Made by a program: the position numbers and the translations under genes
Part shown: in pieces, positions 598 through 35,085 of the stretch
Position numbering within the stretch: position 1 is the first letter of the stretch
Layout: each line of letters starts with the position of its first letter
Notes under the pieces: generated by a model
Databases searched by the model: none
The model's input: only the letters and a program-made list of their open reading frames with translations
Told to the model about the DNA's origin: nothing
NCBI GenBank assembly: GCA_015062495.1
Contig: SUUN01000001.1
Span: 19,881-83,880, forward strand
DNA: 64,000 nucleotides
Direction: 5' to 3'
Source of the DNA: Alphaproteobacteria bacterium
GTDB taxonomy: Bacteria > Pseudomonadota > Alphaproteobacteria > Rs-D84

Positions 598-806
598 GAA
601 AAAACCGTCACAGAAATGACGGTCGGGGTGTTAGAAAAATCAGTCATTTGGTGATTCCTGTTGCCTTCGATATATAACAACAGCACCCCGACATGCGTGG
701 GGTAAAAATAACGGTGCAATAGACACCGATATCATCGGATTACGATGCAATTGCACCGAAATGACTGGGCTTTCTAAGGCCCCGAACAAACATCCCTGTT
801 CATTCA
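598..806 (-). promoter_or_regulatory. Structured leader/attenuator copy L1 (long type)
   Basis: Promoter TTGCAA-17-TAAAAT (841-813). Sense strand contains ACAGGGATG, TTCGGGGCCTTAGAAA, GTCGGGGTG and TTTCTAACACCCCGAC. Terminator ACCGTCA-TTTCTG-TGACGGT plus U-tract. Confidence 0.8.
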
Positions 807-850
807 GTGTTTATTTTATGTAATTTTAGATATTTTTGCAATATAAAAAC

Positions 851-876
851 ATCCCCGCCCAAAAAGGTGCGGGGAT
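851..876 (-). terminator. Intrinsic terminator after the small Cys-rich ORF
   Basis: ATCCCCGC...GCGGGGAT hairpin followed by GTTTTT on the minus strand. Confidence 0.65.
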
Positions 877-885
877 TGGTGGATT

Positions 886-993
886 TTATTTATCACAGTC
901 TTTTTTGTTCATTTCGGGCTTTTTATTGCAACCGCCGTCATGTGTGTTTGAACAGTTTTTACATTTGCCTGATTTGTTTTCAGATTTTGACAT
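886..993 (-). CDS. 35-aa Cys/His/Lys-rich small protein (possible metal-binding peptide)
   Basis: Manual translation MSKSENKSGKCKNCSNTHDGGCNKKPEMNKKDCDK*. AAGGA RBS upstream and a terminator directly downstream. Confidence 0.6.
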   Translation of the reverse strand: MSKSENKSGKCKNCSNTHDGGCNKKPEMNKKDCDK

Positions 994-1138
994 TTTTCAT
1001 CCTTTTGTTAATGTTTGTTTTTGTTGTGTCCGGACGTAAAAATAATATCGTGCGGGGGGCAATATCACAATACGCGTGTTTTCCCAAAAAAAGTATTTGT
1101 AATTTTAGTGAATGTACATTAATATCAATGGCGTTGTT

Positions 1139-1215
1139 CGGGGTGTAGCTCAGCCTGGTAGAGTACTTGCATGGGGTGCAAGGGGTCGCAGGTTCGATTC
1201 CTGTCACCCCGACCA
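1139..1215 (+). tRNA. tRNA-Pro(GGG)
   Basis: Cloverleaf CGGGGTG...CACCCCG-A-CCA; anticodon arm CTTGC-ATGGGGT-GCAAG. Confidence 0.95.
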
Positions 1216-1223
1216 TAAAAATT

Positions 1224-1250
1224 AAACCGTCGCGTTTGCGACGGTTTTTT
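1224..1250. terminator. Bidirectional intrinsic terminator (tRNA-Pro / rne)
   Basis: AAACCGTCGC-GTTT-GCGACGGTTT flanked by A and T tracts between convergent genes. Confidence 0.85.
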
Positions 1251-1251
1251 C

Positions 1252-3045
1252 TTAACTGACCAATTTTTGCCAGAAAGTTTTCTTTTGTGGTTGTTTTTTG
1301 CGTTTGCGACGTTGGGCATTGACTGTGGTCCGTTTTGCATCAACGTGCTGGGCATTTTTGCGTTTTGCATCGGTTGATGGTGCGTATGCCCCCAGCAAAT
1401 CTTCGGTTTTATTCTGTTCAGGTGCAACACGCTGAATCGAATATTGGTCAATGTTCATCAGGCTGTCATCGCCAACAATCACAATTTCGGTTTCGAATTT
1501 GGATTCCATTTCGGCCAATTCGGCACGTTTGTGGTTCAACAGATATACTGCGACATCGGTTGGGACGGTCATGATGATTTTCTGAGCCGCCTTGGCTAAT
1601 AATTTTTCTTGCAAGTGGCGGAACAGAATAATCGCGGCCGTCTGAATCGATGGTACAACACCCGCACCCATACAGTGTGGACATGCGACGTATGATGATT
1701 CCATGAAACTGCTGCGCAGGCGTTGACGCGACAACATCAATACACCAAAGTTGTTGATTTTTGCAACCTGGGTGCGGGCGCGATCGCGTTTCATAACTTC
1801 GCGCATTTTCAGTTCCAATTTGCGGTTGTTCTTTTCTTCTTCCATGTCGATAAAGTCAATCGCAACAATGCCGGCCAAATCGCGCAGACGCAATTGCAGG
1901 GCGATTTCTTCGGCCGCTTCCAGATTAGTGTTCAGGGCCGTTTGTTCAATATCTTTTTCCTTGATCGCGCGGGACGAATTAACGTCGATTGTTACCATGG
2001 CTTCGGTCTGGTTGATAACCAGTGAACCGCCCGATGGTAATTGGACGTATGGCCCGTGTAGACCTTCGAGTTGTTTTTCAACGCCGGCCTTGACCATTAA
2101 TGGAACGCCGGCATCTTTGTAGTGTACCAACTGTTTGCGGGGTGCGCGGCCGTACATTTGGATAAAATGCTGTTTAGCGGCATCAAATGCTTCTTCGCCC
2201 TGGATAATCAGTACGTCTTCTTTGTCGCTTAGAAAATCACGAACGACACGGCGCAACAGGGAATCTTCGGTGTGAATTGTGACCGGGGCGACTGATTCCA
2301 GTGTTGTTTTGCGGATTTCATTCCACAAATTTACCAGGTAATCATAGTCGGCGGCAATGTCGGCCGATGCCGCGCCCATGGCGGCGGTACGCAGAACAAC
2401 GGTCATGCCCTTGGGGATTTTCAGACCGTGCAGAACATCGCGCAGACGGGCACGTTCAGATTTATCAGAAATTTTCTTGGAAATGCCATAACTGTTGCGT
2501 TTACGTGAATTTGGCATCAGAACCGCGAAACGACCCGCCAATGACAGATATGTTGTCATTGATGCACCCTTTTGACCGCGTTCTTCTTTGACGCCCTGGA
2601 CCAGCAAGATTTGTTTTGGTTTGATAACGTCCTGGATTTTGAATTCACGTGCGCGTTTGGCAAATTCTTTGTTGTCTTCGCCGGCACTGTGGTCGTCATA
2701 TTCGGCGACTTCGTCTTCTTCGTCGTTTGGATCGTCGTCGTCGTCAACAATGTTGGCGTGCGCCAATTCCAGCAGTTTCTTTTTCTGTTCAGCAGTTACC
2801 TGGTAATAATCAGGGTGAATTTCAGAGAATGGTAAAAATCCATTTTTCCCAGTCCCATAATCAACAAATGCAGCCTGTAAAGATGGTTCAACGCGAATAA
2901 CCTTGGCCAGATAGATGTTGCCCTTAATCTGGGGTTTGGTGGTGGTTTCAACGTCAAAGTCTGATACGCGGTTAGTTGATGTATCGACAACTACGACACG
3001 TGTTTCTTCCGGGTGGACTGCATCCACATATATTTTTTTTGACAT
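1252..3045 (-). CDS. rne: Ribonuclease E/G family (catalytic domain, short C-terminus)
   Basis: KGNIYLAKVIRVEPSLQAAFVDYG S1 domain with an acidic insert, DFIDM catalytic motif and CPHC Zn-link. Start moved to MSKKIY at 3045. Confidence 0.95.
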   Translation of the reverse strand: MSKKIYVDAVHPEETRVVVVDTSTNRVSDFDVETTTKPQIKGNIYLAKVIRVEPSLQAAFVDYGTGKNGFLPFSEIHPDYYQVTAEQKKKLLELAHANIVDDDDDPNDEEDEVAEYDDHSAGEDNKEFAKRAREFKIQDVIKPKQILLVQGVKEERGQKGASMTTYLSLAGRFAVLMPNSRKRNSYGISKKISDKSERARLRDVLHGLKIPKGMTVVLRTAAMGAASADIAADYDYLVNLWNEIRKTTLESVAPVTIHTEDSLLRRVVRDFLSDKEDVLIIQGEEAFDAAKQHFIQMYGRAPRKQLVHYKDAGVPLMVKAGVEKQLEGLHGPYVQLPSGGSLVINQTEAMVTIDVNSSRAIKEKDIEQTALNTNLEAAEEIALQLRLRDLAGIVAIDFIDMEEEKNNRKLELKMREVMKRDRARTQVAKINNFGVLMLSRQRLRSSFMESSYVACPHCMGAGVVPSIQTAAIILFRHLQEKLLAKAAQKIIMTVPTDVAVYLLNHKRAELAEMESKFETEIVIVGDDSLMNIDQYSIQRVAPEQNKTEDLLGAYAPSTDAKRKNAQHVDAKRTTVNAQRRKRKKQPQKKTFWQKLVS

Positions 3046-3250
3046 TTTGTAATCCTTTTGTTTTGGCGTTGTATGCAATGGCAACAATCCGTCCCCGTGG
3101 GGCGTCCAAGCCCATGCCAAGGGATTGCGCCACGATAACCATCAGCGCCATGCGAATTGTTGAAAATAGTGATAATACAAACACTTATTATAGCCCCATA
3201 TTCATACACGGGTTTTATTCTAACATGCCATTATATAGTTCGCAAGGTAT

Positions 3251-4273
3251 TTATTTTCTGACGCGTATTTCAGATTTTATACGGTTGATTTTTGCAGGTA
3301 TTTTTTCTTTGGCTTCGTTCAGCCAACGTTTCATACGGGAACGCAACCAGCGTTCATAGATAAAGAACAAACTGCCCATGCCAATCAGTGGCAAAACATA
3401 ATAAATTATGCGATATGCCAACAGTGCGCCAAATATGTTAGCCTTGTCCACGGTGTCGGGCAGGGCGACCAAAAATACCGTTTCAAATACGCCGATGCCA
3501 CCGGGAACTTGGCTGAAAACGCCGGTCGATTGGGCAATGGCAAACAGTCCCATAAATACAACAAACGGTATTTTTACAAATGGGGTCAGACAGAAATAAA
3601 GTACCAGACCGGCCAGAATACTGTCTGTTATGCCCAGGATTGTTTGTGTAAATGCCATGCGTGTTGATGGTATCTGGAATTTTAATTGTCCGATTTTTAT
3701 GCTTTTTTTATGAAAGAATATTGTGGTCGCAAAATATACCAACAATGTGACCAAACAAAATATAAATAATGCGTTGATGCCAATACTGGCGCCGACCGAG
3801 TTCTGAAACAGCGCATGTGGGACCAAGAAATAACTGATGACCACAATGGCGGATGCCCCCAGGAAATATGTAAAGCCCGATATAGTCAGCATTTTTACAA
3901 TGTCGCCACCGCGAATGCGCCACCGTGTATACAGACGATATCGAATTGCGCCGCCACTGACCACGGCGTGGCCGGCGTTGTTGCTGATTGCAAAGCCCAG
4001 CATCCCCGCCAACATCCATTTCCACCATGAAACGCGTCCGCCAACATAGTTTAACGCTAAATAATCATACAGGGACAGCGTCAAATACCCCAGCATACAT
4101 GCCACGCATGCCATCGCCAGGTTCATAAATGGAATATCTAATATTGCGTGTGCGATGTCGGACAGACTGTAATCACGCAATTGCCACCACAGCATACCGG
4201 CGGCCAATATAAAAAAGAAAATGCCTGAGTAACTGATTACCTTTTTAATCAGGCGTTTTGTCTGTGCTGACAT
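3251..4273 (-). CDS. Lysylphosphatidylglycerol synthase TM / MprF flippase-like membrane protein (UPF0104)
   Basis: Multi-TM protein with SGGAIRYRLY and QVPGGIGVFE...LLAYRIIYY motifs. Start MSAQTK at 4273. No synthase domain. Confidence 0.85.
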   Translation of the reverse strand: MSAQTKRLIKKVISYSGIFFFILAAGMLWWQLRDYSLSDIAHAILDIPFMNLAMACVACMLGYLTLSLYDYLALNYVGGRVSWWKWMLAGMLGFAISNNAGHAVVSGGAIRYRLYTRWRIRGGDIVKMLTISGFTYFLGASAIVVISYFLVPHALFQNSVGASIGINALFIFCLVTLLVYFATTIFFHKKSIKIGQLKFQIPSTRMAFTQTILGITDSILAGLVLYFCLTPFVKIPFVVFMGLFAIAQSTGVFSQVPGGIGVFETVFLVALPDTVDKANIFGALLAYRIIYYVLPLIGMGSLFFIYERWLRSRMKRWLNEAKEKIPAKINRIKSEIRVRK

Positions 4274-4415
4274 TAAAATCCTTTTACAAGTGTAATAGGA
4301 TAACAATTTTATAAACAAAATCAATCTATAAATAAAATCTGGTGGGGGATTGGGCGGTTGCTTTTTATTTATCAAAGCAATTGAATATACCAAAATTATT
4401 GTGTATAATGTGTTG

Positions 4416-4555
4416 GCATTGGGAAACTGGTGTGAGGGTTCAAAGCCTCGTAAGGGATACTCCAACATTGGTTGGAGGGTTGTGAATATATTGAATAAGC
4501 ACACTATTACTCTTAATAGCTTTGAACCTCCAACCGCCTTTTGTGCGGTTTTTTA
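4416..4555 (+). promoter_or_regulatory. Structured leader/attenuator copy L2 (compact type)
   Basis: Promoter TTGAAT-17-TATAAT (4381-4409). Segments GAGGGTTCAAAGC (4434), CTCCAAC (4460), GGTTGGAGGGTT (4470) and GCTTTGAACCTCCAACC (4519). Terminator ACCGC..GCGGT-TTTTT. Confidence 0.8.
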
Positions 4556-4585
4556 TTTAACAAAATAAAAAAAGGGAGGATTTAA

Positions 4586-4804
4586 ATGGCAACACTGTTG
4601 GTTGATGCGCGATATTTTGGTAATTATTTGCGCATGGCGCGAAATTCAATGAATATCACGCGGTTTGAATGTGCAAAATTATTAGGTGTGTCACATTCAG
4701 AATTGATTAAGATAGAAAACGGCAAGGTTTTAATGCCCGATAAAATAATTCAAAAGGTTATGACGAACGGTATGGCGATGATTTTATGTAAACGACGCAA
4801 TTAA
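4586..4804 (+). CDS. XRE-family helix-turn-helix protein
   Basis: FGNYLRMARNSMNITRFECAKLLGVSHSELIKIENGK fits the XRE HTH pattern. Strong GGGAGG RBS. Confidence 0.85.
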   Translation: MATLLVDARYFGNYLRMARNSMNITRFECAKLLGVSHSELIKIENGKVLMPDKIIQKVMTNGMAMILCKRRN

Positions 4805-7034: not shown

Positions 7035-7553
7035 ATGGAAGACGGTATGAATAACGAAGATAAAGAAGTTCAGGTAGAGGCAGTGTCTGTTGATGATGCG
7101 CCGGTCGTGGACACACCACAGCAAGAATCAGATGTTGAAAAATTAACCGCCCAGTTGGCGGAAATGAATGACAAATATCTGCGTATGGCGGCGGAACTGG
7201 AAAATACGCGTCGTCGGGCGGCGTTGGATGCGGAATCGCGTGCGCGGACGCGTTCGATGGGGGTGGCGGAAAAAATCTTGCCGGTGATGGATGCGGTGGA
7301 TTCTGCGTTAAAGCATGCCCCCGATGATGCAGGGATTCAGTCGATGGCGCGTGCGCTGGAATCTGCATTTGCCCAGATTGGGATTGTAAAAATTGAATCT
7401 GTGGGCCAGGCGTTGAACCCGATGTTTCATAATGCGATTCAGGTTGTGGAATCTGGGGATGCAGCGTCCGGCACGATTGTCGAAGAAATGCAGACCGGGT
7501 ATATGTTTGGCGATACCGTGCTGCGAACTGCAATGGTTGTTGTCGCAAAATAA
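7035..7553 (+). CDS. grpE: Nucleotide exchange factor GrpE
   Basis: YLRMAAELENTRRR, ILPVMDAV, NPMFHNAI and GYMFGDTVLRTAMVVV motifs. Confidence 0.95.
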   Translation: MEDGMNNEDKEVQVEAVSVDDAPVVDTPQQESDVEKLTAQLAEMNDKYLRMAAELENTRRRAALDAESRARTRSMGVAEKILPVMDAVDSALKHAPDDAGIQSMARALESAFAQIGIVKIESVGQALNPMFHNAIQVVESGDAASGTIVEEMQTGYMFGDTVLRTAMVVVAK

Positions 7554-7557
7554 TCCC

Positions 7558-7581
7558 ACCGCCCAGATGGGCGGTTTTTTT
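7558..7581 (+). terminator. Intrinsic terminator after grpE
   Basis: ACCGCCCA-GA-TGGGCGGT followed by a T-tract. Confidence 0.8.
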
Positions 7582-7632
7582 GTTTGCCAAAAAAATATAA
7601 ATTTTTGTATTTTTTTGTGATATAATACCAGT

Positions 7633-7806
7633 GACGCAGGCGACTGTGTTGGGGCGTAAGAACCTCGAAATTTGTGGTGTCCGTGGGGACAAAAAATACC
7701 TCCAACAAATTGGTTGGAGGGTCGCGAATATATTGAATAAGCGCGCTATTTTCCACAAGTTATAGTTCTTAACCTCCAACCGTCTGCTTTGTGACGGTTA
7801 TTTTTT
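7633..7806 (+). promoter_or_regulatory. Structured leader/attenuator copy L3 (compact type)
   Basis: Extended -10 TGA-TATAAT (7618-7626). Segments GTTGGGGCGTAAGAAC (7648), CCTCCAAC (7699), GGTTGGAGGGT (7712) and GTTCTTAACCTCCAACC (7765). Terminator AACCGTC..GACGGTT-ATTTTTT. Confidence 0.8.
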
Positions 7807-7825
7807 ACAAAAAGGGAATACAAAT

Positions 7826-8716
7826 ATGCGATTAACATTTGGGGTTTTAATGTCGCTGATGGTGGGGGCGGCGCATGCAAACACCGACCTGGCCGCGGCG
7901 ATTGAAAATGTCCGCACCGCATGCGGAAACATCAGTGTGGAATTATCGGACATGAAAAAAATGGCGGGTATAACAACCGCCGTCACCGGTGTTGGCACGG
8001 TCGCTGGTGGCGTTGCACTGGGGACAGGTATTGCCAAGGCGGGTGTTGATAAGGAAATAGAGGCCATGGAAAAATTACCTTTATTGACAATTGCAAATGA
8101 GAATGAGTTTGAAACCGCTGTGTTAAATTATGCCAAATCAATAAATCACTCGGTCAATACGGCAATAGGGCATGCTGAAAAGAAATCAAAACAACTGGGC
8201 AATGTTCGTACGGGAACATTGGCAACATCAACAGTTGCCAATATCGCGGGTGCGATTATGTCGGGTACAAATCGGGTAAAGGGTGATTTGAAACAACAAA
8301 TTGATGAATGCTTGGCATCGGTTAAAATATTATCAAATGTTCGTATGCAGGCGCGTATTTCCAAAACTGTCACGGATGCTGATTTGGCACGTGCGGAAAA
8401 TATCATTCATGCATGCGATGCATGGACCACGGTTGATATCAGTTCAATCAATAAACGTTCAACGGGCGCAACCGTATCATCGGGCATTGGTGCGGGGTTG
8501 GGGCTGGCCGGCACAATAACATCTGCATCGGCAAATTCAGACGGTGTTCGTGATGGTGATGCCGACAAAGAAAAGAAATTAAACGCCGCGGCAAATGTGT
8601 TGGCGGGGGGCACAACGGCGGCGGGATTGTCCGCCACAATATTTAACGCAACACAAATAAGTGCAATTAAACGTGCGGCAACGGTTGCCGATGAATGCGA
8701 GGGGGCGCTGAAGTAA
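7826..8716 (+). CDS. Secreted hypothetical protein with Gly/Ala-rich hydrophobic helices
   Basis: Signal peptide ending AHA. Several GxxxG-rich segments (TTAVTGVGTVAGGVALGTG; SSGIGAGLGLAGTIT). Four Cys. Confidence 0.8.
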   Translation: MRLTFGVLMSLMVGAAHANTDLAAAIENVRTACGNISVELSDMKKMAGITTAVTGVGTVAGGVALGTGIAKAGVDKEIEAMEKLPLLTIANENEFETAVLNYAKSINHSVNTAIGHAEKKSKQLGNVRTGTLATSTVANIAGAIMSGTNRVKGDLKQQIDECLASVKILSNVRMQARISKTVTDADLARAENIIHACDAWTTVDISSINKRSTGATVSSGIGAGLGLAGTITSASANSDGVRDGDADKEKKLNAAANVLAGGTTAAGLSATIFNATQISAIKRAATVADECEGALK

Positions 8717-8717
8717 A

Positions 8718-9425
8718 ATGAAAAAAATAGCTTTGTTTTTCTTAACTTTTATATTTTCAACTAATGTGTTTGCGAGTCAACAAACCAGTAACGAAATAGA
8801 ATTAAATACCCCTGTACGTTGGTATGCCAAGGCCTTGAGTAATGCCATATTCAAAATGGTTTATCAATCCAATCAGGATGCAGATGGGGCAGAACATGCC
8901 TCCGCAATCAGAAGTGAATTTTTGCAAACCTTGGATGTAAAAGATGGTGTTGTACTGATTAGCCCTGCTGAATTTATAGATAAATGTATGTCTGTATATC
9001 AAGCGTTTGATGCATCTACAAAATGTTCGAATGCGTTGATGGATGCTGTTCATTTTCATAACGAACTTGTCCAATCGTTTGCGAACGCAAATGCGCTGAA
9101 TGATAGAAATACAAAAATAGAGTGGCAATTCCGGGTTTGGTATAGTGCATTAAGCGTCGTTCTTGATTTGGATTTAGATCCGTTAGTGAATATATTTAGC
9201 GATTATATGAATACTGTTAACAATACAGCCTCGTTAAATGAGTGGTTGTCAGAGTGTAATAGAGCCATGCAATTTATTTCTTCAAGCAATACACCGTATC
9301 ATAAAGATGCCGTTGTTAGAATGCAATCTCATGACTTTTCGTGTCAAAAATATATAGAAGCGCTGGAGCAAAAATACAATGAATTTAGGGCGGCATATCA
9401 TACTGAAACAACGATAAAATTATAA
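8718..9425 (+). CDS. Secreted hypothetical protein
   Basis: MKKIALFFLTFIFSTNVFA signal peptide; starts 1 nt after the upstream stop codon. Confidence 0.75.
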   Translation: MKKIALFFLTFIFSTNVFASQQTSNEIELNTPVRWYAKALSNAIFKMVYQSNQDADGAEHASAIRSEFLQTLDVKDGVVLISPAEFIDKCMSVYQAFDASTKCSNALMDAVHFHNELVQSFANANALNDRNTKIEWQFRVWYSALSVVLDLDLDPLVNIFSDYMNTVNNTASLNEWLSECNRAMQFISSSNTPYHKDAVVRMQSHDFSCQKYIEALEQKYNEFRAAYHTETTIKL

Positions 9426-9437
9426 GGAGCTGAAAAA

Positions 9438-9731
9438 ATGAACAAAAATGATTTAGAAAATTTAGTGGAAGACTATGGTTATTTTGATGCGTTTCCCGGT
9501 GGTGCACCCGCGGGGCGTGCGTCACAGGCGGTGGAATATATGGCCGTCCTGCCCAAGCGGGGTAAAAAACAGGCCCTGATTGACGGGGCGGCACGTATTG
9601 GGGTTTTATTACAAACCGCACGCAAACGATTCCCGGACGGCAAAACACACGAATGTTTGACATTTCCAACGGCATATCAGCAGAAATTCAAACAACAAAT
9701 TCGTGATGTTGTAAAAGCACGTGAAAAATAA
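9438..9731 (+). CDS. Hypothetical protein (97 aa)
   Basis: AAGGAG RBS; followed by terminator CACCGCCCA-TC-TGGGCGGTG-TTTTT (9735-9760). Confidence 0.7.
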   Translation: MNKNDLENLVEDYGYFDAFPGGAPAGRASQAVEYMAVLPKRGKKQALIDGAARIGVLLQTARKRFPDGKTHECLTFPTAYQQKFKQQIRDVVKAREK

Positions 9732-9877
9732 CCCCACCGCCCATCTGGGCGGTGTTTTTTTGGGGGGGGGAGAAAGAAAATGTTGTAGCGCGACTTGACA
9801 AATATAAATGTTGTGTTATATATGTGTGATACGGAGAGTGAGCCGTATCATGAACAGCATAACCAAGAGGTGCTATC

Positions 9878-11428
9878 ATGACAAACGTAAAAACAAACCT
9901 TCCTCAAACATCCCTAGTCAGTAAGACGGCAAATATCATTTCTGAAACACGTCGTCCAGATGGTTCTTTGGCCACGCAGATATTAACAATCGGATTCGAC
10001 AAATATTTAATTCAATATGATTCCCAGGGTCAGGTTGTGTTCAAAGAAAAAATGGGCGAGTTATTCTTTAATGAAAAAGACATAACTTATAATAATGGTT
10101 GCGTTGCATCAATTACACGTCGTGATTATAGGGGCAACAGGGCCATTTCTCAATACGATGAAAATGGTCATATTATTGCGACTATAAATGCTAATAAAAA
10201 CGATATTGTAAACTTTGCGCCATCAGGATATGTCCGGTCTGTTATTAAACATTTGTCAGAATACGGTGATTTTGGCAAAACAACTGAAATCGAAGAAATC
10301 ACATTTAATGATTTCGGACATATAGTATCTTCTGCACACAAGGTGAAAATGACAGATTTGTTTGGCCCAGGACGTGATAAATGGATGACAACAGACACCA
10401 AGCAATATTATCCAAATGGGCAAATGGCCAGTCATATCACGTATAAGCAAAAAACAAAACGTACAGGCAGATGGACATCTGAAAATCAAGAAGACGAAGC
10501 GGCATCGTATATTTCATCAATCACTCAATATAGTGAAAAAGGCAAGTTGCAGGTGTCTGCACAACTGGGCGAATATGATGAAATAAACTTTAACGGCGAT
10601 AAAGTTGCGTGTATAACCAGACGTGTAAAGAAAGGTGACAGCCTGGAAACAATGTCCCAAACAACATATTATCCATCTGGAAATTTGTGCACAATAACAA
10701 CATACCAAGATGGCAGGGTTGTGTCTTCTGTGACTTATGATGAACAGGGCAAGCCACAAAGTAGTGCCCAGCAAGGAACAGAAAATTATCAGGATATATA
10801 TCAGAACGCACAGCAGACACGCCAAAACACACAGAACATTAAGTCTTTTGCCAAGATTGGCATGACGCCACAGCAGGCGGCCAGCATTTTGGGTGTGTCC
10901 TTAAGTGCAACCGAACAGGAAGTAAAAGTGGCATATCGTAAACTGTGTAAAATCTGGCATCCGGACAGAAACCAAGGAAATGAAGAGGTGGCTAAGCGCA
11001 AAATGCAACAAATCAATGAAGCGTACAGCGTTATGTCACAATACATCAGGAACCGCGGTGGTCAATCTCGTCCTGAACAGCCACAACAACCGCGACCTGA
11101 ACACATTAACCGAATGCAGCAGGCATGGAATAAACTACAACAGGCTATTCGTGATTATGACTATGCCGTAGATAGGTTAAAAGCCGCCACGGCAGAAAAA
11201 GAAAGAATCAGAAGCGAATATGTCAGAACAGCAGCAAATGATCAAAAGAAACGAAAATTGGAACAGCAATTAAGAAAGGCTGAGATTGCTTGGTCAGCGT
11301 GTGTTAACAACAAAATCCGGGCACAGGCATATAAAGATAAATGTGAACGTGAATATAATATGTTGCGCATGCAAAAATATACGAAAATGTATCAACAAAA
11401 ATGTTGTGAATATCAACGTGCTGCATAA
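9878..11428 (+). CDS. J-domain (DnaJ-like) protein with N-terminal YwqK/MORN-variant-like beta repeats and C-terminal coiled coil
   Basis: AASILGVSLSATEQEVKVAYRKLCKIWHPDRN..MQQINEAYSVM is a J-domain with HPD. Repeats such as QYYPNGQMAS and TYYPSGNLCT precede it. Confidence 0.85.
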   Translation: MTNVKTNLPQTSLVSKTANIISETRRPDGSLATQILTIGFDKYLIQYDSQGQVVFKEKMGELFFNEKDITYNNGCVASITRRDYRGNRAISQYDENGHIIATINANKNDIVNFAPSGYVRSVIKHLSEYGDFGKTTEIEEITFNDFGHIVSSAHKVKMTDLFGPGRDKWMTTDTKQYYPNGQMASHITYKQKTKRTGRWTSENQEDEAASYISSITQYSEKGKLQVSAQLGEYDEINFNGDKVACITRRVKKGDSLETMSQTTYYPSGNLCTITTYQDGRVVSSVTYDEQGKPQSSAQQGTENYQDIYQNAQQTRQNTQNIKSFAKIGMTPQQAASILGVSLSATEQEVKVAYRKLCKIWHPDRNQGNEEVAKRKMQQINEAYSVMSQYIRNRGGQSRPEQPQQPRPEHINRMQQAWNKLQQAIRDYDYAVDRLKAATAEKERIRSEYVRTAANDQKKRKLEQQLRKAEIAWSACVNNKIRAQAYKDKCEREYNMLRMQKYTKMYQQKCCEYQRAA

Positions 11429-12224: not shown

Positions 12225-12232
12225 ATTATCAT

Positions 12233-20998: not shown

Positions 20999-21237
20999 AA
21001 ACAAAACCACCAAAAAACTGTATGGTGGTCGGGGTGTTAGAAAAATCATGAAAAAGAGTGATCCCGTCGGCCTTTGGGGCGAAACGCCCCTGTGGTATAA
21101 CCGACGGCACCCCGACAATACGACGGGAAAGACACAAACAATTTTGTGTTTGCGTGTATATGGATTACAGTATTTGTTATCATACCGCTTTTTCATAGGC
21201 TTTTCTAAGGCCCCGAATACACATCCCTGTATATTCA
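20999..21237 (-). promoter_or_regulatory. Structured leader/attenuator copy L4 (long type)
   Basis: Promoter TTGCAC-17-TATACT. Sense strand contains ACAGGGATG, TTCGGGGCCTTAGAAAA, GTCGGGGTG and TTTTCTAACACCCCGAC. Terminator ACCACCA..TGGTGGT-TTTGTTT. Confidence 0.8.
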
Positions 21238-21338: not shown

Positions 21339-23552
21339 TTATTCGGAATAGTGGCAGTTTTCGCCATATTCCCAATTGCCGGTGTCATCGGATTCCGAAT
21401 AGCCCGCCGGGATAAAGCAATCGGTGATGGCGGCTGGGGTGTTGGTGGCTTGATCAAATGTTGTATGGGCAACAAATCCGCCCGATGTTGGGCACAGTTC
21501 TGCGCCTGCACCAATCCAATAGGTGGCGGTGCTTCTGTTTGAACCATCAAAAATTATATTTACTGCATCGGCGATGGTATATGTCCCGCCCGGGCAATAA
21601 TATCCATTTGGGCATGGAAAACATGGTTGTAGCCAAGAACCATATGTACTTGTGTTAAGCGCGGCAAAAGTTCCGGGTTGGCATGTGATTGCTGCGGATG
21701 ATACATAACATGATGAACTGCTGCCCATATTCCCGGGACATATAGCGCAAGAAGCGGTCCCAGCCCTGCCAAATGTATTGTAATATGCCCCTTCGGTATA
21801 TACACCGTTGGTTGGCAGTGTTACGGTGCATGGCAGGCATGCATCCACCGATGTTGCGCCGGTTGTGCTGTTATATGTGCCCGCGGGACATGGATACATG
21901 CCGAACATGCCAACCGTTTCGAAAAATTGTGAAACACCGGGGCAATAATATCCCTTGGGACAGGTGTCGCATTTGGCGTCGGTGGTAGAGTTTGATTTGT
22001 AAAAATACGTTCCGGCGGCACAGGTTGTGACGCTGGTGGCGGCGACACAGGTGTTGCCACTTTTTACATATCCATCGTCACAGGTAAAGTATAAGGTTGT
22101 GCCACAATCGCATCCGGACGAGCATGAATAACAGTCGCTTTTGCTGTCTGAACCGGTGGGTGAAGTTCCCGTGTCGCAAATATAATAACAGTCATGTGCA
22201 TTGTCGGGACATGTGGCGGTTTTTTGCATGGTTGAATATCCGCAACTTTTCCGTCCCTGAAAGGTATCGCCACCAACGGTGTATGTTACGCCGGGACAGT
22301 AATAGCCCGCATCACATTCATCGCAACTTTCGCTGCCATCATAATAGTATTTGCCGGCGGGGCATGTGCCGGTTGTTGGCTCGGTTTCGTCGGCTGTCCA
22401 ATTGGCATAGTATGTTTTGTTGCCGGTTGTGCTGGTTGAAATGCTTGTTGCCTTGGTTGAACCGGTGGATGTTGTGTACCAACCATCAAATGTATAGCCC
22501 GAACAAGATGCCGGGGTTGGCAATGTGACTGGCAGGCTGGATGCCGTATATGTTGTCGGGGTCAGGCCGGATACCGAACATGACGATGGTGCGCCAGACT
22601 GTTTGGAATATGTGATGGTGTACGATGTTTCAACAGCCTGGCATGCAGTAGAAGTTGTTGTCGTAGAACCGCCCGCCAGACCTGTTGTTGTATAGCCAGA
22701 ATTACATGTACACGATGTTGCCGTTGCTGATGATGCAGATGAATTGCTGGGGCAAGTTTTACATGTGCCACTGGACAGAAATTGAGTTGTACTGGTACAC
22801 GATGTGTATGTCTTTGTGCCATCGTCGGTATCGTAAGTAAAAGCACCCGTACTATCTGTGCCATATGCTGTGCCACCGGCTGGTATGCTGCATGCGGCAC
22901 TGGATGTTGCGCCCGTGGATGATGTTGTGGTGTAAAATGGTGATTGATAGGCGTTTGTTGTGTACAGCAGGTTTCCTTCGTCATCTTCTGCCTGGGGACA
23001 ACGAGTACATCCATAATAATTACTGGACGTGCCTATTATTAGGTTTCTGTAATAGCCCTTGGCACAGGTAAGTGTTGAACCCGAGCATGTCGCATAAGAA
23101 CCAGATGATGGACATGGTGCGCATATGTTGTTATATTTATAATAGCCAGAGTTACAGGTGAATGTTGAACTATTGCCACCCGGACATGTTGCATTGTCGG
23201 GACATTTGGTACAGCCAGATGTTCCAGACGAGTTCGCCGTACCGTAATAACCACTGGCACATTTATATGTTGGGGCCCCCAAGGAACACGAACATTGAAA
23301 TTTTGTAGTGCCATTACAGAAATAGCCCGGTTCATTTACGGTGGTTGCCACATAGCCGCCAAGTGTAGTGGTTGTCGTTACGCAAGTGTTGCAGAAATCA
23401 TCGTTGCAATAATAATCATCAGGGGTCGCGTTTGGGCAACCGCTTAGTCCCGCATTCGCACCCGTTAATGGATAGCAAACGGTTGATGCGCCCCATGCCG
23501 TTGTGCCAAGGCAAATTGCCAATGTGGTGAATAGTATGGAAAGTTTTTTCAT
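21339..23552 (-). CDS. Secreted Cys/Thr-rich protein with ephrin-receptor-like repeats and an InlB B-repeat (Listeria-Bacteroides repeat)
   Basis: Signal peptide AWG; many CPAGxY repeats; YTFDGWYTT...NKTYYANW B-repeat; C-terminal ITDCFIPAG..DDTGNW..C.Y. Confidence 0.85.
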   Translation of the reverse strand: MKKLSILFTTLAICLGTTAWGASTVCYPLTGANAGLSGCPNATPDDYYCNDDFCNTCVTTTTTLGGYVATTVNEPGYFCNGTTKFQCSCSLGAPTYKCASGYYGTANSSGTSGCTKCPDNATCPGGNSSTFTCNSGYYKYNNICAPCPSSGSYATCSGSTLTCAKGYYRNLIIGTSSNYYGCTRCPQAEDDEGNLLYTTNAYQSPFYTTTSSTGATSSAACSIPAGGTAYGTDSTGAFTYDTDDGTKTYTSCTSTTQFLSSGTCKTCPSNSSASSATATSCTCNSGYTTTGLAGGSTTTTSTACQAVETSYTITYSKQSGAPSSCSVSGLTPTTYTASSLPVTLPTPASCSGYTFDGWYTTSTGSTKATSISTSTTGNKTYYANWTADETEPTTGTCPAGKYYYDGSESCDECDAGYYCPGVTYTVGGDTFQGRKSCGYSTMQKTATCPDNAHDCYYICDTGTSPTGSDSKSDCYSCSSGCDCGTTLYFTCDDGYVKSGNTCVAATSVTTCAAGTYFYKSNSTTDAKCDTCPKGYYCPGVSQFFETVGMFGMYPCPAGTYNSTTGATSVDACLPCTVTLPTNGVYTEGAYYNTFGRAGTASCAICPGNMGSSSSCYVSSAAITCQPGTFAALNTSTYGSWLQPCFPCPNGYYCPGGTYTIADAVNIIFDGSNRSTATYWIGAGAELCPTSGGFVAHTTFDQATNTPAAITDCFIPAGYSESDDTGNWEYGENCHYSE

Positions 23553-27741: not shown

Positions 27742-28383
27742 ATGATTTACGGCTATATACGTGTGTCAACAGACCATCAAACAACAGAAAACCAGCGTTT
27801 CGAAATCAAGCGTTTTTGCGAAAAACAAGATCTGGTCATAGATTGCTGGATAGAAGAGACGATTTCATCAACCAAGGATTTGAGCAAGCGAAAATTGGGA
27901 CGATTGCTGCGCCGGATTCAAAAAGATGACCTGATTATTGCGTCTGAATTGTCGCGATTGGGGCGTAATTTATTGCAAGTAATGAGTATTTTGCATCATT
28001 GTATGGATGTTGGGGCAAAAATCTGGACGATTAAGGATAATTACAGGCTGGGGGCTGATATTACGTCCAAAGTGTTGGCGTTTGCGTTCGGGTTGTCTGC
28101 GGAAATTGAACGAAATCTGATTTCGCAACGAACCAAAGAAGCGATTGCGCGTGTCAGGGCCGAAGGAAAACGTGTGGGACGGCCGCTGGGCAGTCGCAAT
28201 ACATATAAATTAGAGGGGCGCGAAAGATACATATCGCAAAAATTAGGTGATGGGCGTTCACGGTATGAAATCGCACGACGTCTGCGGGTGCATCGTGATA
28301 CATTGGCCCGGTTTATCGAAGACCGAGAAATTCAGCCAGAATGTAGTGTCGAACAAAACCAAACGCCGGTCTTAAAACTGTAA
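27742..28383 (+). CDS. mpi: Serine recombinase of the Mpi (master DNA invertase) family
   Basis: MIYGYIRVSTDHQTTENQRFEI, SELSRLGRNL, WTIKDNYRLG.DI.SKVLAFAFGLSAEIERNLISQRTKEA match the Bacteroides Mpi pattern closely. C-terminal HTH. Confidence 0.85.
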   Translation: MIYGYIRVSTDHQTTENQRFEIKRFCEKQDLVIDCWIEETISSTKDLSKRKLGRLLRRIQKDDLIIASELSRLGRNLLQVMSILHHCMDVGAKIWTIKDNYRLGADITSKVLAFAFGLSAEIERNLISQRTKEAIARVRAEGKRVGRPLGSRNTYKLEGRERYISQKLGDGRSRYEIARRLRVHRDTLARFIEDREIQPECSVEQNQTPVLKL

Positions 28384-31332: not shown

Positions 31333-31347
31333 TACTGGGGTTGTGTT

Positions 31348-31620: not shown

Positions 31621-31648
31621 TAAACTTTAAACAAATGGGGGATTCAAA

Positions 31649-32518: not shown

Positions 32519-32583
32519 TAAAAAATCCCCCGTTTGGGGGATTTTTATTTGAATTTTTTTTATCTTTATATTATAATCTGCCT

Positions 32584-32839
32584 TGAACCAACAGGGATGT
32601 TGGGTCAGGGACGTAAGAAATCCTTTATCATTGCGATGTTCTTTGGGGCATTGAATCCGACTTTGGCAAAATAAATAAACCAGGGCGCGGATGCGCTTTT
32701 TATTTTGCAAAAATTCGCCCGATTTTTGTCGGGGGGTCCGTGGCTATACAACAGCGCATACGCGTAAAGGCCACGGAGGTCATTCAATGATATGATTTTC
32801 TTAACCCCCTGACCGTCATTTCCATGACGGTTTTTGTTT
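32584..32839 (+). promoter_or_regulatory. Structured leader/attenuator copy L6 (long type)
   Basis: Promoter TTGAAT-17-TATAAT (32549-32577). ACAGGGATG (32591), TCAGGGACGTAAGAAA (32605), GTCGGGGGGT (32728), TTTCTTAACCCCCTGAC (32797). Terminator ACCGTCA..TGACGGT-TTTT. Confidence 0.8.
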
Positions 32840-32864
32840 AATTAAACGAAAAAGGGAAAAGAAA

Positions 32865-34529
32865 ATGAAAAAACACTTTATTTTAACTTCGTTGGTTGCA
32901 ATTGCCATGTCTTGCCCAGCCGTGGCGGCAACAGATGTTACATTCAGTGGTATGTATAACGGTGACGCATCAAAGATTGCCGATGGTGTTGCAGATACGA
33001 CATATGATTACGTAAAATCAGACGGTACAACAGCGTCGGGTGTTGCGTATGATGCAAACCCGGTGTTGACCGATTTTACATATCAGGATGTTGATGGGGC
33101 AATCAAAAGCCTGGCCGACGGAACGCCAGATATATCGGTATATACCGGCACAACAACCGCGTCGGGCGATATCGTGAGCACACAGACAGTCGCCGCAGGG
33201 GAAACAGCAAGCCGTGATAATTACACCTATAAAAACGGTGCGGGTGAAGTTGTAACACTGGGCGAAAATGCACAGGATATGGTTGCAACGCATACTCTGT
33301 CCGATTATGCAGGTGGTGCAGTTGCCACGATTACAAATGGTACATCTGATACAGCAATTGATGGTTCAATGTATTCGTTTGAATATGAAGGTCAAACCTT
33401 AAAATTATCATCGGATGGGACACAATATACACTGAATGGTATCCCCCAGGAAGAACCAACCTCAGGCGCATTGTTTGATTTGTTGACAGAAGTTCGTGGT
33501 GCATTTGATAACGATAAGACAGCAATTGAAAATGCAAAAACCACAACAGCTGATAATTGGACAACAGAACAAACCAACTTTGACGCAGCAAATGATGTGT
33601 TTGTCGCAGATAGCAATAAAATTGCGGAACTGAATGGTTATTTCGAAACTGTTGGTGCTGCAACTGATGCGTTGGAAGCAGCCAAGACAGCCCAACAGGT
33701 GGCGGCAGATAAATACGCAGAAAACGGTGCATTGTTCCAGGCGGCGAAAGACGTCTATGATGCGCCAATTCTGGAAACAATCACAAATGGTGCGAATGAA
33801 GCAATTGATGACGCGTTGGCCGAAGGTGGTGCAATCCGTTCTGAATTGGATGTAAACGCAACAGCAATTGCAGACAATAAAACTGCAATTGAAACTAACG
33901 CTGCGAATATTGAAGTAAACGCGACAAATATTGCTGCAAATAAAACTGCAATTGAAACTAATGCTGCGAATATTGAAGTAAACGCGACAGCAATTGCAGA
34001 CAATAAAACTGCAATTGAAACTAATGCTGCGAATATTGAAGTAAACGCGACAAATATTGCTGCAAATAAAACTGCAATTGAATCCGAAGTTGCACGCGCA
34101 ACAGCGGCTGAAATCGAATTGGATGGAAAAATTGCCCAAAATACATCAGCAATTGAAGAAGAAGTTGCAAATCGTATCGCGGGTGATGAAATGACATTGG
34201 CATCGGCCAAGGCATATGTCGATTCCAAGAACGAATTGGCATTAAAGTCTGCATATGATTATACAGACAGCAAGGTTGACGCATTGGAAGATGAACTGTC
34301 GGCCGGTATTGCCAGTGCCGCGGCGATGTCTTCGGTTGCGGTGTCTGGCGTAGGCAAGGGTGAAGTGTCTGTTGGTGGTGGCTATGGCTATTACAACAGT
34401 CAATCCGCGATTGCATTGGGTGCGGCGATGGGGCTGACCGATAACTGGTCTGTGAATGCAGCGGCCGGTTTGGCAGATTCAAATGTCACATTCCGTGCAG
34501 GAACAAATTACAAGTTCAAATTGTTTTAG
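32865..34529 (+). CDS. Trimeric autotransporter adhesin (YadA-like C-terminal anchor)
   Basis: Signal peptide; coiled-coil stalk; anchor AGIASAAAM..SVGGGYGYYNSQSAIALG..RAGTNYKFKLF. Confidence 0.9.
   Translation: MKKHFILTSLVAIAMSCPAVAATDVTFSGMYNGDASKIADGVADTTYDYVKSDGTTASGVAYDANPVLTDFTYQDVDGAIKSLADGTPDISVYTGTTTASGDIVSTQTVAAGETASRDNYTYKNGAGEVVTLGENAQDMVATHTLSDYAGGAVATITNGTSDTAIDGSMYSFEYEGQTLKLSSDGTQYTLNGIPQEEPTSGALFDLLTEVRGAFDNDKTAIENAKTTTADNWTTEQTNFDAANDVFVADSNKIAELNGYFETVGAATDALEAAKTAQQVAADKYAENGALFQAAKDVYDAPILETITNGANEAIDDALAEGGAIRSELDVNATAIADNKTAIETNAANIEVNATNIAANKTAIETNAANIEVNATAIADNKTAIETNAANIEVNATNIAANKTAIESEVARATAAEIELDGKIAQNTSAIEEEVANRIAGDEMTLASAKAYVDSKNELALKSAYDYTDSKVDALEDELSAGIASAAAMSSVAVSGVGKGEVSVGGGYGYYNSQSAIALGAAMGLTDNWSVNAAAGLADSNVTFRAGTNYKFKLF
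33852..34082 (+). repeat. Coding tandem repeat, 63-bp unit x about 3.7 (126-bp higher-order repeat)
   Basis: VNATAIADNKTAIETNAANIE alternating with VNATNIAANKTAIETNAANIE. Confidence 0.9.
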
Positions 34530-34607
34530 TTGAATAAATCCCGCCAAATGGCGGGATTTTTTTAAGAGCAAATAGCAAAGCGCAAATAGCAATTAAATAT
34601 TAAGACT

Positions 34608-34777
34608 CGTCATTCCCGCTTGGTTTCACCCACGCAAACATTTGTTTGCGCAGGGCCCGGGGCGGGAATCCACTGCGTCGCAGACATTTTTATGCAGTCC
34701 CTGCGGGGCAATAGATACCTGCCTGGTATCACCCACAAAAATTTTCAATTTTTGCGGGGCCCGAAGCGGGTATGACG
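34608..34777. repeat. REP/RPE-like palindromic element with nested inserts
   Basis: CGTCATTCCCGC..GCGGGAATCCA ... GATACCTGC..GCGGGTATGACG. Each arm holds a TGGT(T/A)TCACCCAC-hairpin-GGGCCC insert. Confidence 0.75.
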
Positions 34778-34855
34778 ATTTTATTTTTTTACTTAAATAA
34801 ACTTTTATTTATCTAAGTAATTGAATTTATAACAACTATAGCGTATAATTGTTTT

Positions 34856-35085
34856 GTTGCCGGGTGTTCCGGTGATGGGGTGTCGAAACCCTTGCTCTAA
34901 GCGTCTGTGATATTAATTGCACGCCGGGTGGCGTGTTTTTATGCTGTGGACGAGAATTTATAACTCCTGGTCTTTGCTGGTCAGGAGGGTTGTGAATAAT
35001 GCGCGCCTTGTGCGCAAAATAAGCACACAATTCTTAGAGATTGTTTCGAACCTCCTGACCGTCTGATTATTGACGGTTTTTTATT
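34856..35085 (+). promoter_or_regulatory. Structured leader/attenuator copy L7 (compact-type core)
   Basis: Promoter TTGAAT-17-TATAAT (34821-34849). GGGGTGTCGAAAC (34877), CTCCTGGTC (34964), GGTCAGGAGGGTT (34979), GTTTCGAACCTCCTGACC (35043). Terminator ACCGTC..GACGGT-TTTTT. Confidence 0.8.

Follow-up and report, generated by a model that had tools for sequence, protein, structure and literature searches.

The stretch of 64,000 nucleotides analysed here (hereafter the window), part of an alphaproteobacterial genome of the lineage Rs-D84 (contig SUUN01000001.1), contains seven intergenic leaders, L1 to L7. We propose that these leaders are probably cis-acting transcription attenuators that are OFF by default, adopt two mutually exclusive folds, and were domesticated from an RNA module of the phage immunity type. 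Judged by their architecture, they appear to be a terminator-coupled and greatly multiplied variant of that module, a distant relative of sRNA-Xcc1 (Rfam family RF02221) built in the manner of the Bartonella Brt RNAs. An earlier description made from the DNA letters (the sequence-only reading) had regarded them as an unrecognised new class of RNA; the evidence does not favour this view, given sub-threshold, full-length matches to RF02221, the same boxes in phage Xcc1 loci and the element order of Brt. What is new with respect to the literature searched is the link between Xcc1, Brt and these leaders, together with an explicit two-state, double-clamp model.

All seven leaders were read on their sense strands at the positions first assigned to them, six of them intact and one (L5) decayed. 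They are 140-270 bases long, their 5' ends fall a few bases downstream of a promoter of their own, and each ends in a built-in intrinsic terminator (a G+C-rich hairpin and a U-tract, the latter interrupted in L5) 20-40 nt before the gene start. Of the proposed promoters, a strict sigma-70 scan found those of L1 (TTGCAA-17-TAAAAT) and of L2, L6 and L7 (TTGAAT-17-TATAAT); those of L4 (TTGCAC-17-TATACT) and L3 (an extended -10, TGTGATATAAT) were recognised by eye, and that of L5 looked weak. The terminators of L1, L2, L3, L5, L6 and L7 were called by a scan, and that of L4 has a 12-nt loop, beyond the limit of the scan. Every pairing previously listed between segments S1 and S4 and between S3 and S4 was reproduced by duplex folding; the S3:S4 energy is -13.5 to -21.3 kcal/mol in six copies and -5.6 kcal/mol in L5, which, with this degenerate S3:S4 and a weak P4 hairpin, is indeed the most divergent copy. 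The minimum free energy (MFE) folds computed with RNAfold share one overall architecture across all seven leaders.

The four segments of the sequence-only reading are present, but that layout is incomplete, since four helices (P0, P2, P4 and P5) had been overlooked. P0 is a hairpin of 7-9 bp at the 5' end that directly abuts S1a, and its loop is of the GNRA type in six copies (GGGA, GAAA or GCGA). P2 is a long-range helix directly inside S1b:S4b, with P2a/P2b sequences of AGTCATTT/AAATGACT in L1, ATGAAAAAG/CTTTTTCAT in L4, ATCATTG/CAATGAT in L6, TTGTGG/CCACAA in L3 and CTCTAAG/CTTAGAG in L7. The resulting long closing helix (S1a:S4a, S1b:S4b and P2) encloses both the S2:S3 hairpin and the P4 hairpin. 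P4 lies directly 3' of S3 and has a conserved loop, which reads AATATATTGAATAAG in L2 and L3 and (T)TATAC, a stem and AAAGG in L4 and L6 (in full, TTATACCACA, stem, AAAGG in L4 and CTATACAACA, stem, TAAAGG in L6), with variant loops in L1, L2, L3 and L7. P5 is a short hairpin (for example CTAT/ATAG, CAAT/ATTG or AATCA/TGATT) that carries P2b in its loop. We considered a promoter embedded in the P4 loop and rejected it, as TTGAAT stands at no fixed spacing to any -10. The P0 hairpins of L1 (784-805), L4 (21215-21236) and L6 (32585-32606) display ACAGGGAUGU in the loop, near the consensus obtained for CsrA by in vitro selection (SELEX); a CsrA site was discarded, because most relatives lack this sequence and have other loops there (GUGAUUA, GCGA), and the loop is probably a plain GNRA loop.

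Related leaders are numerous. A pattern scan for the P4 core AGGGTNNNGAATATATTGAATAAG, with one genome per species, gave at least 120 further stretches across many species; nearly all of the stretches listed come from metagenome-assembled genomes (MAGs) labelled Alphaproteobacteria, Candidatus Enterousia or 'Rickettsiales', from the guts of ruminants, chickens, rabbits and humans. This clade corresponds to the order Rs-D84 / Ca. Enterousia, with genomes of less than 1 Mb (PMC12306168). The proteins of the window had matches in metagenome contigs only. A covariance model (R1), seeded with five trimmed window copies, picked up L2, which was absent from the seed, with 48.5 bits (E 4e-11) and detected 31 full-length copies among the pattern loci of other genomes, an under-count in that R1 splits copies with long inserts. 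In the rest of the window, including 36-64 kb, R1 found no further copy, its extra matches at 55335 and 60240 being ordinary terminators or coding sequence. In the 31-copy alignment, 93.0% of the cells hold standard pairs, compared with 62.5% in shuffles and 39-49% with slid partners, and 39 of the 41 pairs change on both sides. S1b:S4b and P2 are paired in 98.5% and 96% of these cells, respectively, each with 3-5 pair types per position.

A purpose-written parser then reduced 123 distinct pattern hits to 104 clean leaders. S1b:S4b is paired over 7 of 7 positions in all of them (725 Watson-Crick pairs, 3 G-U) in 39 sequence variants, and P2 (6-11 bp) occurs in 80. S3:S4 consists of 9-11 contiguous pairs, with 927 Watson-Crick pairs, 8 G-U and one mismatch, and its two strands covary (TTGG/CCAA, TCAGG/CCTGA, CTGG/CCAG) among the types GGTTGGAGG/CCTCCAACC, GTCAGGAGG/CCTCCTGAC and GGCTGGAGG/CCTCCAGCC. 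The P5 stem measures 5-7 bp in 96 of 103 leaders, or in 97 if a single stem of 8 bp is included, and its arms covary. S1a:S4a contains 88 G-U against 3 A-C pairs, and P0 is also rich in G-U; because of this excess, we regard the conserved object as an RNA on the leader strand rather than a DNA repeat. The same asymmetry bears on the idea of a DNA switch, in which S1/S4 and P2 would be the inverted repeats of a DNA segment turned over by a serine recombinase, whose gene lies at 27742-28383. The 7-bp repeats are perfect and hardly contain any G-U, which would suit such a switch, but they differ from copy to copy (39 S1b and 80 P2a variants), whereas one recombinase would require a shared site; the promoter is not enclosed by the repeats; P0, P4, P5, S2:S3 and the terminator overlap would be meaningless for inversion; and no inverted variant occurs among about 125 loci. 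Together with the strand-specific G-U pairs, this makes the inversion extremely improbable.

The two-state switch of the sequence-only reading, with S1:S4, S2:S3 and the terminator in the OFF state and S3:S4 as antiterminator in the ON state, is upheld as a model by this anatomy and comparison. An intrinsic terminator stands immediately 3' of S4 in 104/104 parsed leaders, and in 95 of them S3:S4 includes 3-5 nt from the foot of the terminator 5' arm, a median of half of the stem (a single case with 6 nt brings the count to 96). Because S3:S4 covers this foot, it is a geometrically valid antiterminator. The leaders thus have the two parts of a transcriptional attenuator, a terminator before the gene and a mutually exclusive helix that captures part of the terminator 5' arm.

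In the mechanism that we propose, a constant scaffold would be joined by two copy-specific helices that connect the 5' domain to the 3' domain: S1b, displayed in the loop of a small S1 hairpin, would pair with S4b, and P2a with P2b in the P5 loop. In state A (OFF), S1a:S4a would lengthen this clamp while S2 holds S3, and these two pairings would leave the terminator free, so that RNA polymerase would halt 20-40 nt ahead of the start codon. In state B (ON), S4 would pair with S3 over 9-11 bp and close a three-way junction of the sRNA-Xcc1 type (S3:S4, P4 and P5), in which S4b is the junction strand and P2b the P5 loop; the lowest 3-5 bases of the terminator 5' arm would then be sequestered, allowing readthrough into the gene. 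S1b:S4b and P2 might remain formed, as pseudoknots, whichever state is adopted, and switching would then consist of two strand exchanges, of S1a between il5 and S4a, and of S3 between S2 and S4. The anatomy, covariation, geometry and relatives are observed, whereas termination in state A, readthrough in state B and a signal that tips the equilibrium are inferred. Under nested folding, state A comes out more stable by about 5 kcal/mol as long as the 3' arm of the terminator has yet to be transcribed, and by about 10 kcal/mol once it is present, which fits a default OFF state as far as such predictions go, the pseudoknotted state being beyond scoring.

Several observations weigh against this interpretation. 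The local hairpin S1a:il5 is weakly supported (3-4 of 4 pairs in 100/104 leaders, with 60% in controls). When S3:S4 is enforced in nested folding, the freed S2 pairs with the Shine-Dalgarno (SD) sequence in 74/97 leaders; state B may accordingly not be simply 'ON', and a translational layer is possible. Beyond the P4 loop and the S2, S3 and S4 boxes, we saw no conserved unpaired pocket such as metabolite aptamers typically have, and no defined signal (ligand, tRNA, protein or ribosome) and no conserved leader open reading frame (ORF) was identified. The public RNA-seq runs consist of low-depth assembled contigs, some probably DNA, with no usable 3' ends, and one RNA-labelled contig spans the L7 terminator. 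The 279-nt contig that starts in the L7 promoter and ends 20 nt past the L7 terminator is no evidence of a transcript end, because it begins inside the promoter. L2 and L3 have no RF02221 match at E<=10, R1 scores at noise level on the Brt copy of the Bartonella plasmid pBGR3, and the homology of the leaders to Xcc1 and Brt rests on architecture plus two sub-threshold hits.

What might shift the balance between the two states? We give nearly even weight to a factor, either protein or RNA, that targets the clamp or the junction; a small ligand is unlikely as the trigger, as is, to the same degree, a purely kinetic set-point without a signal. A metabolite or ion riboswitch, in which a ligand at the three-way junction or the conserved P4 loop stabilises one state, would account for the strong conservation of the P4 loop, whose core AGGGTNNNGAATATATTGAATAAG is so widespread, for the terminator/antiterminator expression platform, and for a multi-helix junction with covariation; moreover, Brt1 readthrough has been reported to respond to the haem level (PMC8070961). 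However, XRE regulators, diverse secreted proteins, phage antirepressors and symE (bioRxiv 10.1101/2025.06.18.660453) have no metabolic theme in common, the P4 loop differs by subtype (L1, L4 and L6 versus L2, L3 and L7), the junction strands are not conserved, and a copy-specific clamp is nearer to antisense recognition than to an aptamer, so we regard a riboswitch as unlikely. Ribosome-mediated attenuation through a leader peptide is very improbable: short ORFs can be read in some copies (TTG AAT AAG... in L2; ATG...TAA inside the P4 loop of L7), but there is no conserved frame or start, the conserved AATAAG lies in different frames in L2 and L7, just 3 nt separate P2a from S2 in L2, and no suitably spaced SD occurs in L1, L4 and L6.

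The copy-specific helices behave as addresses. Within a genome the combination of S1b and P2a is unique to each leader (48/48, nine MAGs), and orthologous leaders in different MAGs retain an identical combination; the addresses are therefore stable, and each belongs to a single copy. Since no two loci of a genome in that set have an address in common, cross-talk between loci by this route was rejected. Stand-alone genes for trans-acting small RNAs, with downstream expression as incidental readthrough and the alternative pairings without a switching role, would explain why each unit has its own promoter and terminator, and Xcc1 has been mapped to a separate RNA of 88 nt (PMC2996969), Brt RNAs rank with the most abundant Bartonella transcripts and have proposed trans effects (PMC5387305, PMC8070961), and phage Xcc1 boxes also match the ribosome-binding site (RBS) of the antirepressor gene ant, which suits an antisense role. 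In the leaders, however, the interval between the terminator and the start codon is too short for a promoter (S4 lies a median of 61 nt from the start), both recognition boxes are paired in cis in the terminated RNA, the overlap of S3:S4 with the terminator would be needless for a small-RNA gene, the unique addresses make no trans targets evident, and copies of the own boxes at the RBS are not enriched. This alternative is thus fairly improbable beside cis-acting attenuation.

A bolder possibility, to which we assign little probability, is that of a self-addressed RNA memory switch derived from phage immunity systems, in which a free domain binds nascent transcripts of the same address in trans and locks one locus ON or OFF. 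The address would be S1b plus P2, unique per copy; a free 5' domain would arise through a stop at an internal terminator (L1, L6, L7 and the phage leaders), and a free three-way-junction domain through processing. If this were true, a bacterium with less than 1 Mb of DNA would vary single surface proteins and XRE regulators heritably, without DNA change. Terminator-like hairpins with T-runs are present in the variable inserts of L1 (712-728, minus strand), L6 (32682-32699, plus strand) and L7 (34919-34936, plus strand), and termination there could yield a free 5'-domain RNA of about 90-100 nt. The L7 insert GGCGTGTTTTTATGC resembles the internal terminator TTTTTTTATGYC that separates the 5' domain from the Xcc1 junction in the leaders of three phages.

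Secreted proteins follow six window copies, in keeping with the 'surface-antigen repertoire' of the sequence-only reading, yet this label is too narrow, as L2 precedes an XRE-family regulator and, in relatives, about a third of the leaders precede small XRE regulators. Behind CAGG-type leaders (GTCAGGAGG), signal-peptide proteins are found in 45-48 of 48 cases and no XRE protein was detected; behind TTGG-type leaders (GGTTGGAGG), XRE proteins of 70-95 aa are found in at least 27 of 48 and signal-peptide proteins in 13 of 48. The leader subtype therefore tracks the gene class (Fisher p 8e-12, for copies that are not independent). The SD of the gene also mimics the flank of S3, being CAGGAG in 18/48 CAGG-type versus 1/48 TTGG-type leaders, and TGGRG in 3/48 versus 16/48.

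This mimicry raises the question of whether control is mainly translational, with anti-SD-like boxes (S2 or S4, CUCC...) masking the RBS as in the phage relatives and the terminator being secondary. The pairing of the freed S2 with the SD under enforced S3:S4, an MFE fold of the pBGR3 Brt copy that pairs an S4-like box with the SD, and the targeting of the ant SD by the phage leaders all point in this direction. Nevertheless, canonical terminators with U-tracts are present in 104/104 leaders, the match between SD and S3 may just have been inherited with the module subfamilies, and the S2:SD pairing is a long-range prediction of the nested model only; we hold mainly translational control to be quite improbable. 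The P2a sequences of L4 (21188-21196) and L5 (23780-23788), ATGAAAAAG, are nearly identical to the sequence around the start codon of the gene that each leader precedes (ATGAAAA...; start positions 20972 and 23552). The P5 loop of L4 and L5 could thus also pair with the start codon, which may be a vestige of the RBS target of the phages or chance in signal peptides beginning MKK....

If the leaders are attenuators, as we propose, they would control much of the secretome and many small XRE regulators in Rs-D84 / Ca. Enterousia, uncultured gut bacteria whose genomes of less than 1 Mb have few conventional regulators. Seven leaders lie within 35 kb here, and up to six parsed copies (7-8 pattern-hit loci) of one subtype alone occur in single MAGs.

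We describe the individual copies in order along the window. L1 (GGGG-type, 598-805, minus strand) spans the P0 hairpin to the terminator U-tract, with its promoter at 841-813 and its terminator at 624-603. On the same strand its elements are P0 797-805/784-792, S1a 780-783, S1b 771-777, P2a 759-766, S2 697-703, S3 685-692, P4 678-683/658-663, P2b 642-649, S4b 631-637, S4a 625-628 and the terminator arms 617-623/604-610. The gene behind it (2-577, minus strand) encodes a Cys-rich secreted protein of more than 192 aa that runs off the window edge, with a signal peptide and no Pfam hit. L2 (TTGG-type, 4416-4556, plus strand; promoter 4381-4409) is the minimal copy, with 141 nt. It comprises P0 4416-4422/4427-4433 with a GAAA loop, S1a 4434-4437, S1b 4439-4445, P2a 4451-4456, S2 4460-4466, S3 4471-4478, P4 4479-4484/4500-4504, P2b 4510-4515, S4b 4520-4526, S4a 4527-4530 and the terminator 4532-4537/4545-4550. 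Its gene (4586-4804, plus strand) encodes a 72-aa XRE-family helix-turn-helix (HTH) protein (Pfam HTH_3, E 3.9e-5; also HTH_31/HTH_19).

L3 (TTGG-type, 7633-7806, plus strand) lies between grpE and a secreted-protein operon, and its terminator was confirmed by the scan. Its elements are P0 7633-7639/7644-7650 with a GCGA loop, S1a 7651-7654, S1b 7657-7663, P2a 7672-7677, S2 7700-7706, S3 7713-7720, P4 7721-7726/7742-7746, P2b 7753-7758, S4b 7765-7771, S4a 7774-7777 and the terminator 7778-7784/7793-7799. The genes behind it (7826-9425, plus strand) encode a 296-aa Ala/Gly-rich protein and a 235-aa protein, both secreted, with signal peptides and no Pfam hit; this operon recurs in metagenome contigs. 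The operon ends in a gene for a 516-aa protein with a DnaJ domain and MORN repeats, and such surroundings (7035-11428, plus strand) are unusual for chaperone genes.

L4 (GGGG-type, 20999-21236, minus strand) consists of P0 21228-21236/21215-21223, S1a 21211-21214, S1b 21202-21208, P2a 21188-21196, S2 21122-21127, S3 21109-21116, P4 21101-21107/21064-21070, P2b 21048-21056, S4b 21037-21043, S4a 21031-21034 and the terminator 21024-21028/21007-21011. It precedes a gene (20232-20972, minus strand) for a 246-aa Cys-rich secreted protein that is weakly paralogous to the products of the L5 and L7 genes. L5 (23583-23828, minus strand) has a 5' half (P0, S1 and P2a) nearly identical to that of L4; its terminator, CCACC/GGTGG followed by CCATGTTTTA, lacks a clean U-tract. 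The gene behind it (21339-23552, minus strand) encodes a 737-aa Cys-rich secreted protein with a Pfam Flg_new match (Listeria-Bacteroides repeat, E 2.8e-10), and may be read constitutively, the leader being decayed.

L6 (GGGG-type, 32585-32839, plus strand; promoter 32549-32577) has P0 32585-32593/32598-32606, S1a 32607-32610, S1b 32614-32620, P2a 32627-32633, S2 32718-32722, S3 32728-32736, P4 32738-32743/32771-32776, P2b 32785-32791, S4b 32797-32803, S4a 32807-32810 and the terminator 32813-32818/32825-32830. Its gene (32865-34529, plus strand) encodes a 554-aa trimeric autotransporter adhesin (Pfam YadA_anchor, E 8.5e-10). Between the terminator of this gene and the L7 promoter there are two adjacent imperfect palindromic elements of about 80 nt (34590-34775, plus strand), TCATTCCCGC...GCGGGAATCC and CCTGCCTGGTATCACCC...CGGGTATGACG; positions 34726-34765 are skipped in one metagenome contig. 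L7 (CAGG-type, 34856-35085, plus strand; promoter 34821-34849), with its S1 12-mer GGTGTCGAAACC, has P0 34856-34863/34869-34876, S1a 34877-34880, S1b 34883-34889, P2a 34895-34901, S2 34964-34972, S3 34979-34988, P4 34989-34994/35024-35028, P2b 35033-35039, S4b 35043-35049, S4a 35052-35055 and the terminator 35058-35063/35072-35077. The product of its gene (35112-35822, plus strand) is a 236-aa Cys-rich secreted protein with a signal peptide and segments paralogous to the L4 and L5 gene products.

How do these leaders compare with known systems? Like classical attenuators and transcriptional riboswitches, they have four competing segments (S2, S3, S4 and the terminator 3' arm) and a terminator just before the RBS. 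In contrast to classical attenuators, they have an added anti-antiterminator layer, provided by a distal 5' domain that is attached through two copy-specific helices, with no leader peptide and no known ligand or protein factor.

Phage immunity RNAs offer a closer parallel. The C4 RNA of phage P1, with its a1b1/a2b2 boxes, is laid out like the CI RNA of P4. This two-box layout is that of P4 CI RNA, with seqA and seqC, and of Gifsy-1 IsrK/STnc1160 (PMC4825925). As in these systems (P4 CI, P1/P7 C4 and IsrK/STnc1160), the RNA is embedded in a leader and short boxes pair with its own transcript; in P4 the pairing causes premature transcription termination, and in all of them the boxes set the specificity and differ among related elements, comparable to the copy-specific S1b and P2 addresses. 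These phage RNAs are processed and act in trans, and they have a downstream target set, which is missing in Rs-D84. The Rfam models of C4 (RF01695) and isrK (RF01394) matched neither the leaders nor the leader of phage Aaphi23 at permissive E-values.

The resemblance to sRNA-Xcc1 extends to the fold itself. A scan of the window at gathering thresholds found tRNAs only; a permissive scan found RF02221 in L6 (32728-32821, 38.1 bits) and L4 (21020-21116, 32.7 bits, E 4e-4), over the full model, aligned exactly as state B and below the gathering score of 53. Apart from Xcc1, Rfam gave terminator-driven noise only at permissive thresholds. The RF02221 model is planned as a 9-bp outer helix, a first hairpin with an AUACAA/GAA internal loop, a second hairpin and a 6-nt junction strand. 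The leaders have this three-way junction, with S3:S4 of 9-11 bp, the P4 loops, P5 of 5-7 bp and S4b of 7 nt; the features held in common with Xcc1 are an outer helix of 9-10 bp, a P4 hairpin with an AUACAA, stem, AA(A)G loop, the P5 hairpin and a junction strand of 6-7 nt (S4b). In the literature, Xcc1 is a trans-acting small RNA found before symE in Xanthomonas integron cassettes and before an ORF6N gene in APSE phage.

We read three bona fide phage Xcc1 loci, in Aaphi23 (86.1 bits to RF02221, the positive control), Xylella phage Xfas53 and E. coli Rac-SA53, and all three lie directly upstream of antirepressor (ant) genes. The order of elements is an S1 hairpin with a loop that complements the Xcc1 junction strand, an adjacent box that complements the P5 loop, an internal terminator, the three-way junction and a second pair of boxes over the ant RBS. 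In Aaphi23, the S1 loop and junction strand are TCGAAA/TTTCGA, P2a and the P5 loop CAAACAG/CTGTTTG, and the copies at the ant RBS TCGAAA...CAAACAGGAG; the corresponding sequences are GTAAGAA/TTCTTAC, GAAACAG/CTGTTTC and GTAAGAAC...GAAACAGGAG in Xfas53, and TCGAAAC/GTTTCGA, TACAAG/CTTGTA and TTCGAAA...TACAAGAGG in Rac-SA53. The boxes covary across the three phages (twelve shuffle tests, p 0.0025-0.11). This suggests that in prophages Xcc1 may control the translation of antirepressors by antisense pairing, in a layout like that of P4 CI RNA; we found no paper that links Xcc1 to the control of ant. The annotated tandem repeats of about 380 bp in Xfas53 (582-1480), called 'anti-repressor' coding sequences (CDSs), contain the Xcc1 leader and match the Xcc1 units of about 385 bp, five in tandem, of a genomic island of X. 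fastidiosa (PMC12189769); these CDS calls probably overlie RNA.

The S1 hairpin loop and P2a box of the phage loci are present in the six intact window copies and in the 104 relatives, and terminator-like hairpins in the variable region, as in the phages, recur in L1, L6 and L7; the L7 S1 12-mer is identical in the Aaphi23 leader. The two groups differ in that second copies of both phage boxes overlap the ant RBS with no U-tract terminator behind, whereas the Rs-D84 leaders have an intrinsic terminator overlapped by S4 and a strong S2 competitor for S3. Downstream of the leaders, their own S1b is repeated in 2/103 and P2a in 6/103, compared with 2 and 5 for the boxes of another leader, and there is no enrichment. 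We propose that the leader module probably descends from, or shares ancestry with, the RNA before temperate-phage antirepressor genes, and that in the alphaproteobacterial versions (Brt and the Rs-D84 leaders) the RBS target boxes of the phage were replaced by a terminator.

Brt1-9 are abundant RNAs of 194-203 nt located 10-18 nt upstream of a barely transcribed XRE gene, trp, which lacks a promoter of its own; trp1 is transcribed more strongly when the 3' stem-loop of Brt1 is deleted, its product Trp1 is an activator of the adhesin gene badA, and haem is the suspected trigger (Tu et al. 2016, PMC5387305; review, PMC8070961). They have been reported as genus-specific, and trans effects have been proposed (PMC5387305, PMC8070961). 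We compared the plasmid pBGR3 copy, the HTH gene of which is a member of the Trp family, and two B. henselae copies by MFE folding and by inspection of these three. All have P0, S1a (GGGAG) and S1b pairing with S4b and S4a (UUGAAAA/UUUUCAA...CUCCC, or GUAAAG/CUUUAC), P2 (AAUCCGAA, AGUUCUAA or AAUUCUAG, each with its perfect complement) presented by a CUGA/UCAG hairpin loop, a variable hairpin, S2:S3 (UCCCGG/CCGGGAG), P4 and S4 (CUCCCGG), the CCGG of which is the foot of the 3' hairpin. The changes between copies are compensatory, both between UUGAAAA/UUUUCAA and GUAAAG/CUUUAC and in the P2 boxes. The annotated 152-aa 'Trp6/7' ORFs of B. henselae (3001-3459 and 3846-4304 of the record used) begin inside the Brt RNA, where a GTG falls at the P4 hairpin. 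Translation probably starts instead about 100 nt further on, at a GTG preceded by GGGGGA, and the protein would then have about 118 aa.

In sequence, the two families are far apart. Membership of Brt is defined by BLAST identity above 79%, and L2 had no blastn match to plasmids, including pBGR3; the pBGR3 copy itself had no significant match in Rfam. The boxes are CCGGGAG/CUCCCGG in Brt versus GGUUGGAGG/CCUCCAACC in the leaders, the 3' hairpin of Brt has no U-tract, the Trp proteins are longer (108-152 aa) and only XRE genes lie behind Brt, whereas most window leaders precede secreted proteins. In architecture, the element order is the same (P0, S1a and S1b, P2a, variable hairpin, S2:S3, P4, P5 with the P2b loop, S4b, S4 and 3' hairpin), and the foot of the 3' hairpin (CCGG) likewise lies inside S3:S4. 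Both are alphaproteobacterial and multicopy (2-34 per genome) RNAs with their own promoter; Brt ends just before a small XRE gene, as do L2, with its 72-aa XRE protein, and at least 27 of 48 TTGG-type relatives, the other six window copies preceding secreted proteins. For Brt1, attenuation by the 3' stem-loop has been demonstrated experimentally in published work, and the Brt regulon includes a trimeric autotransporter adhesin (BadA), a protein type that L6 directly precedes. The Brt mechanism thereby gains concrete nucleotides to mutate, and Xcc1, the 'genus-specific' Brt and the Rs-D84 leaders are brought under one explicit and testable structural model.

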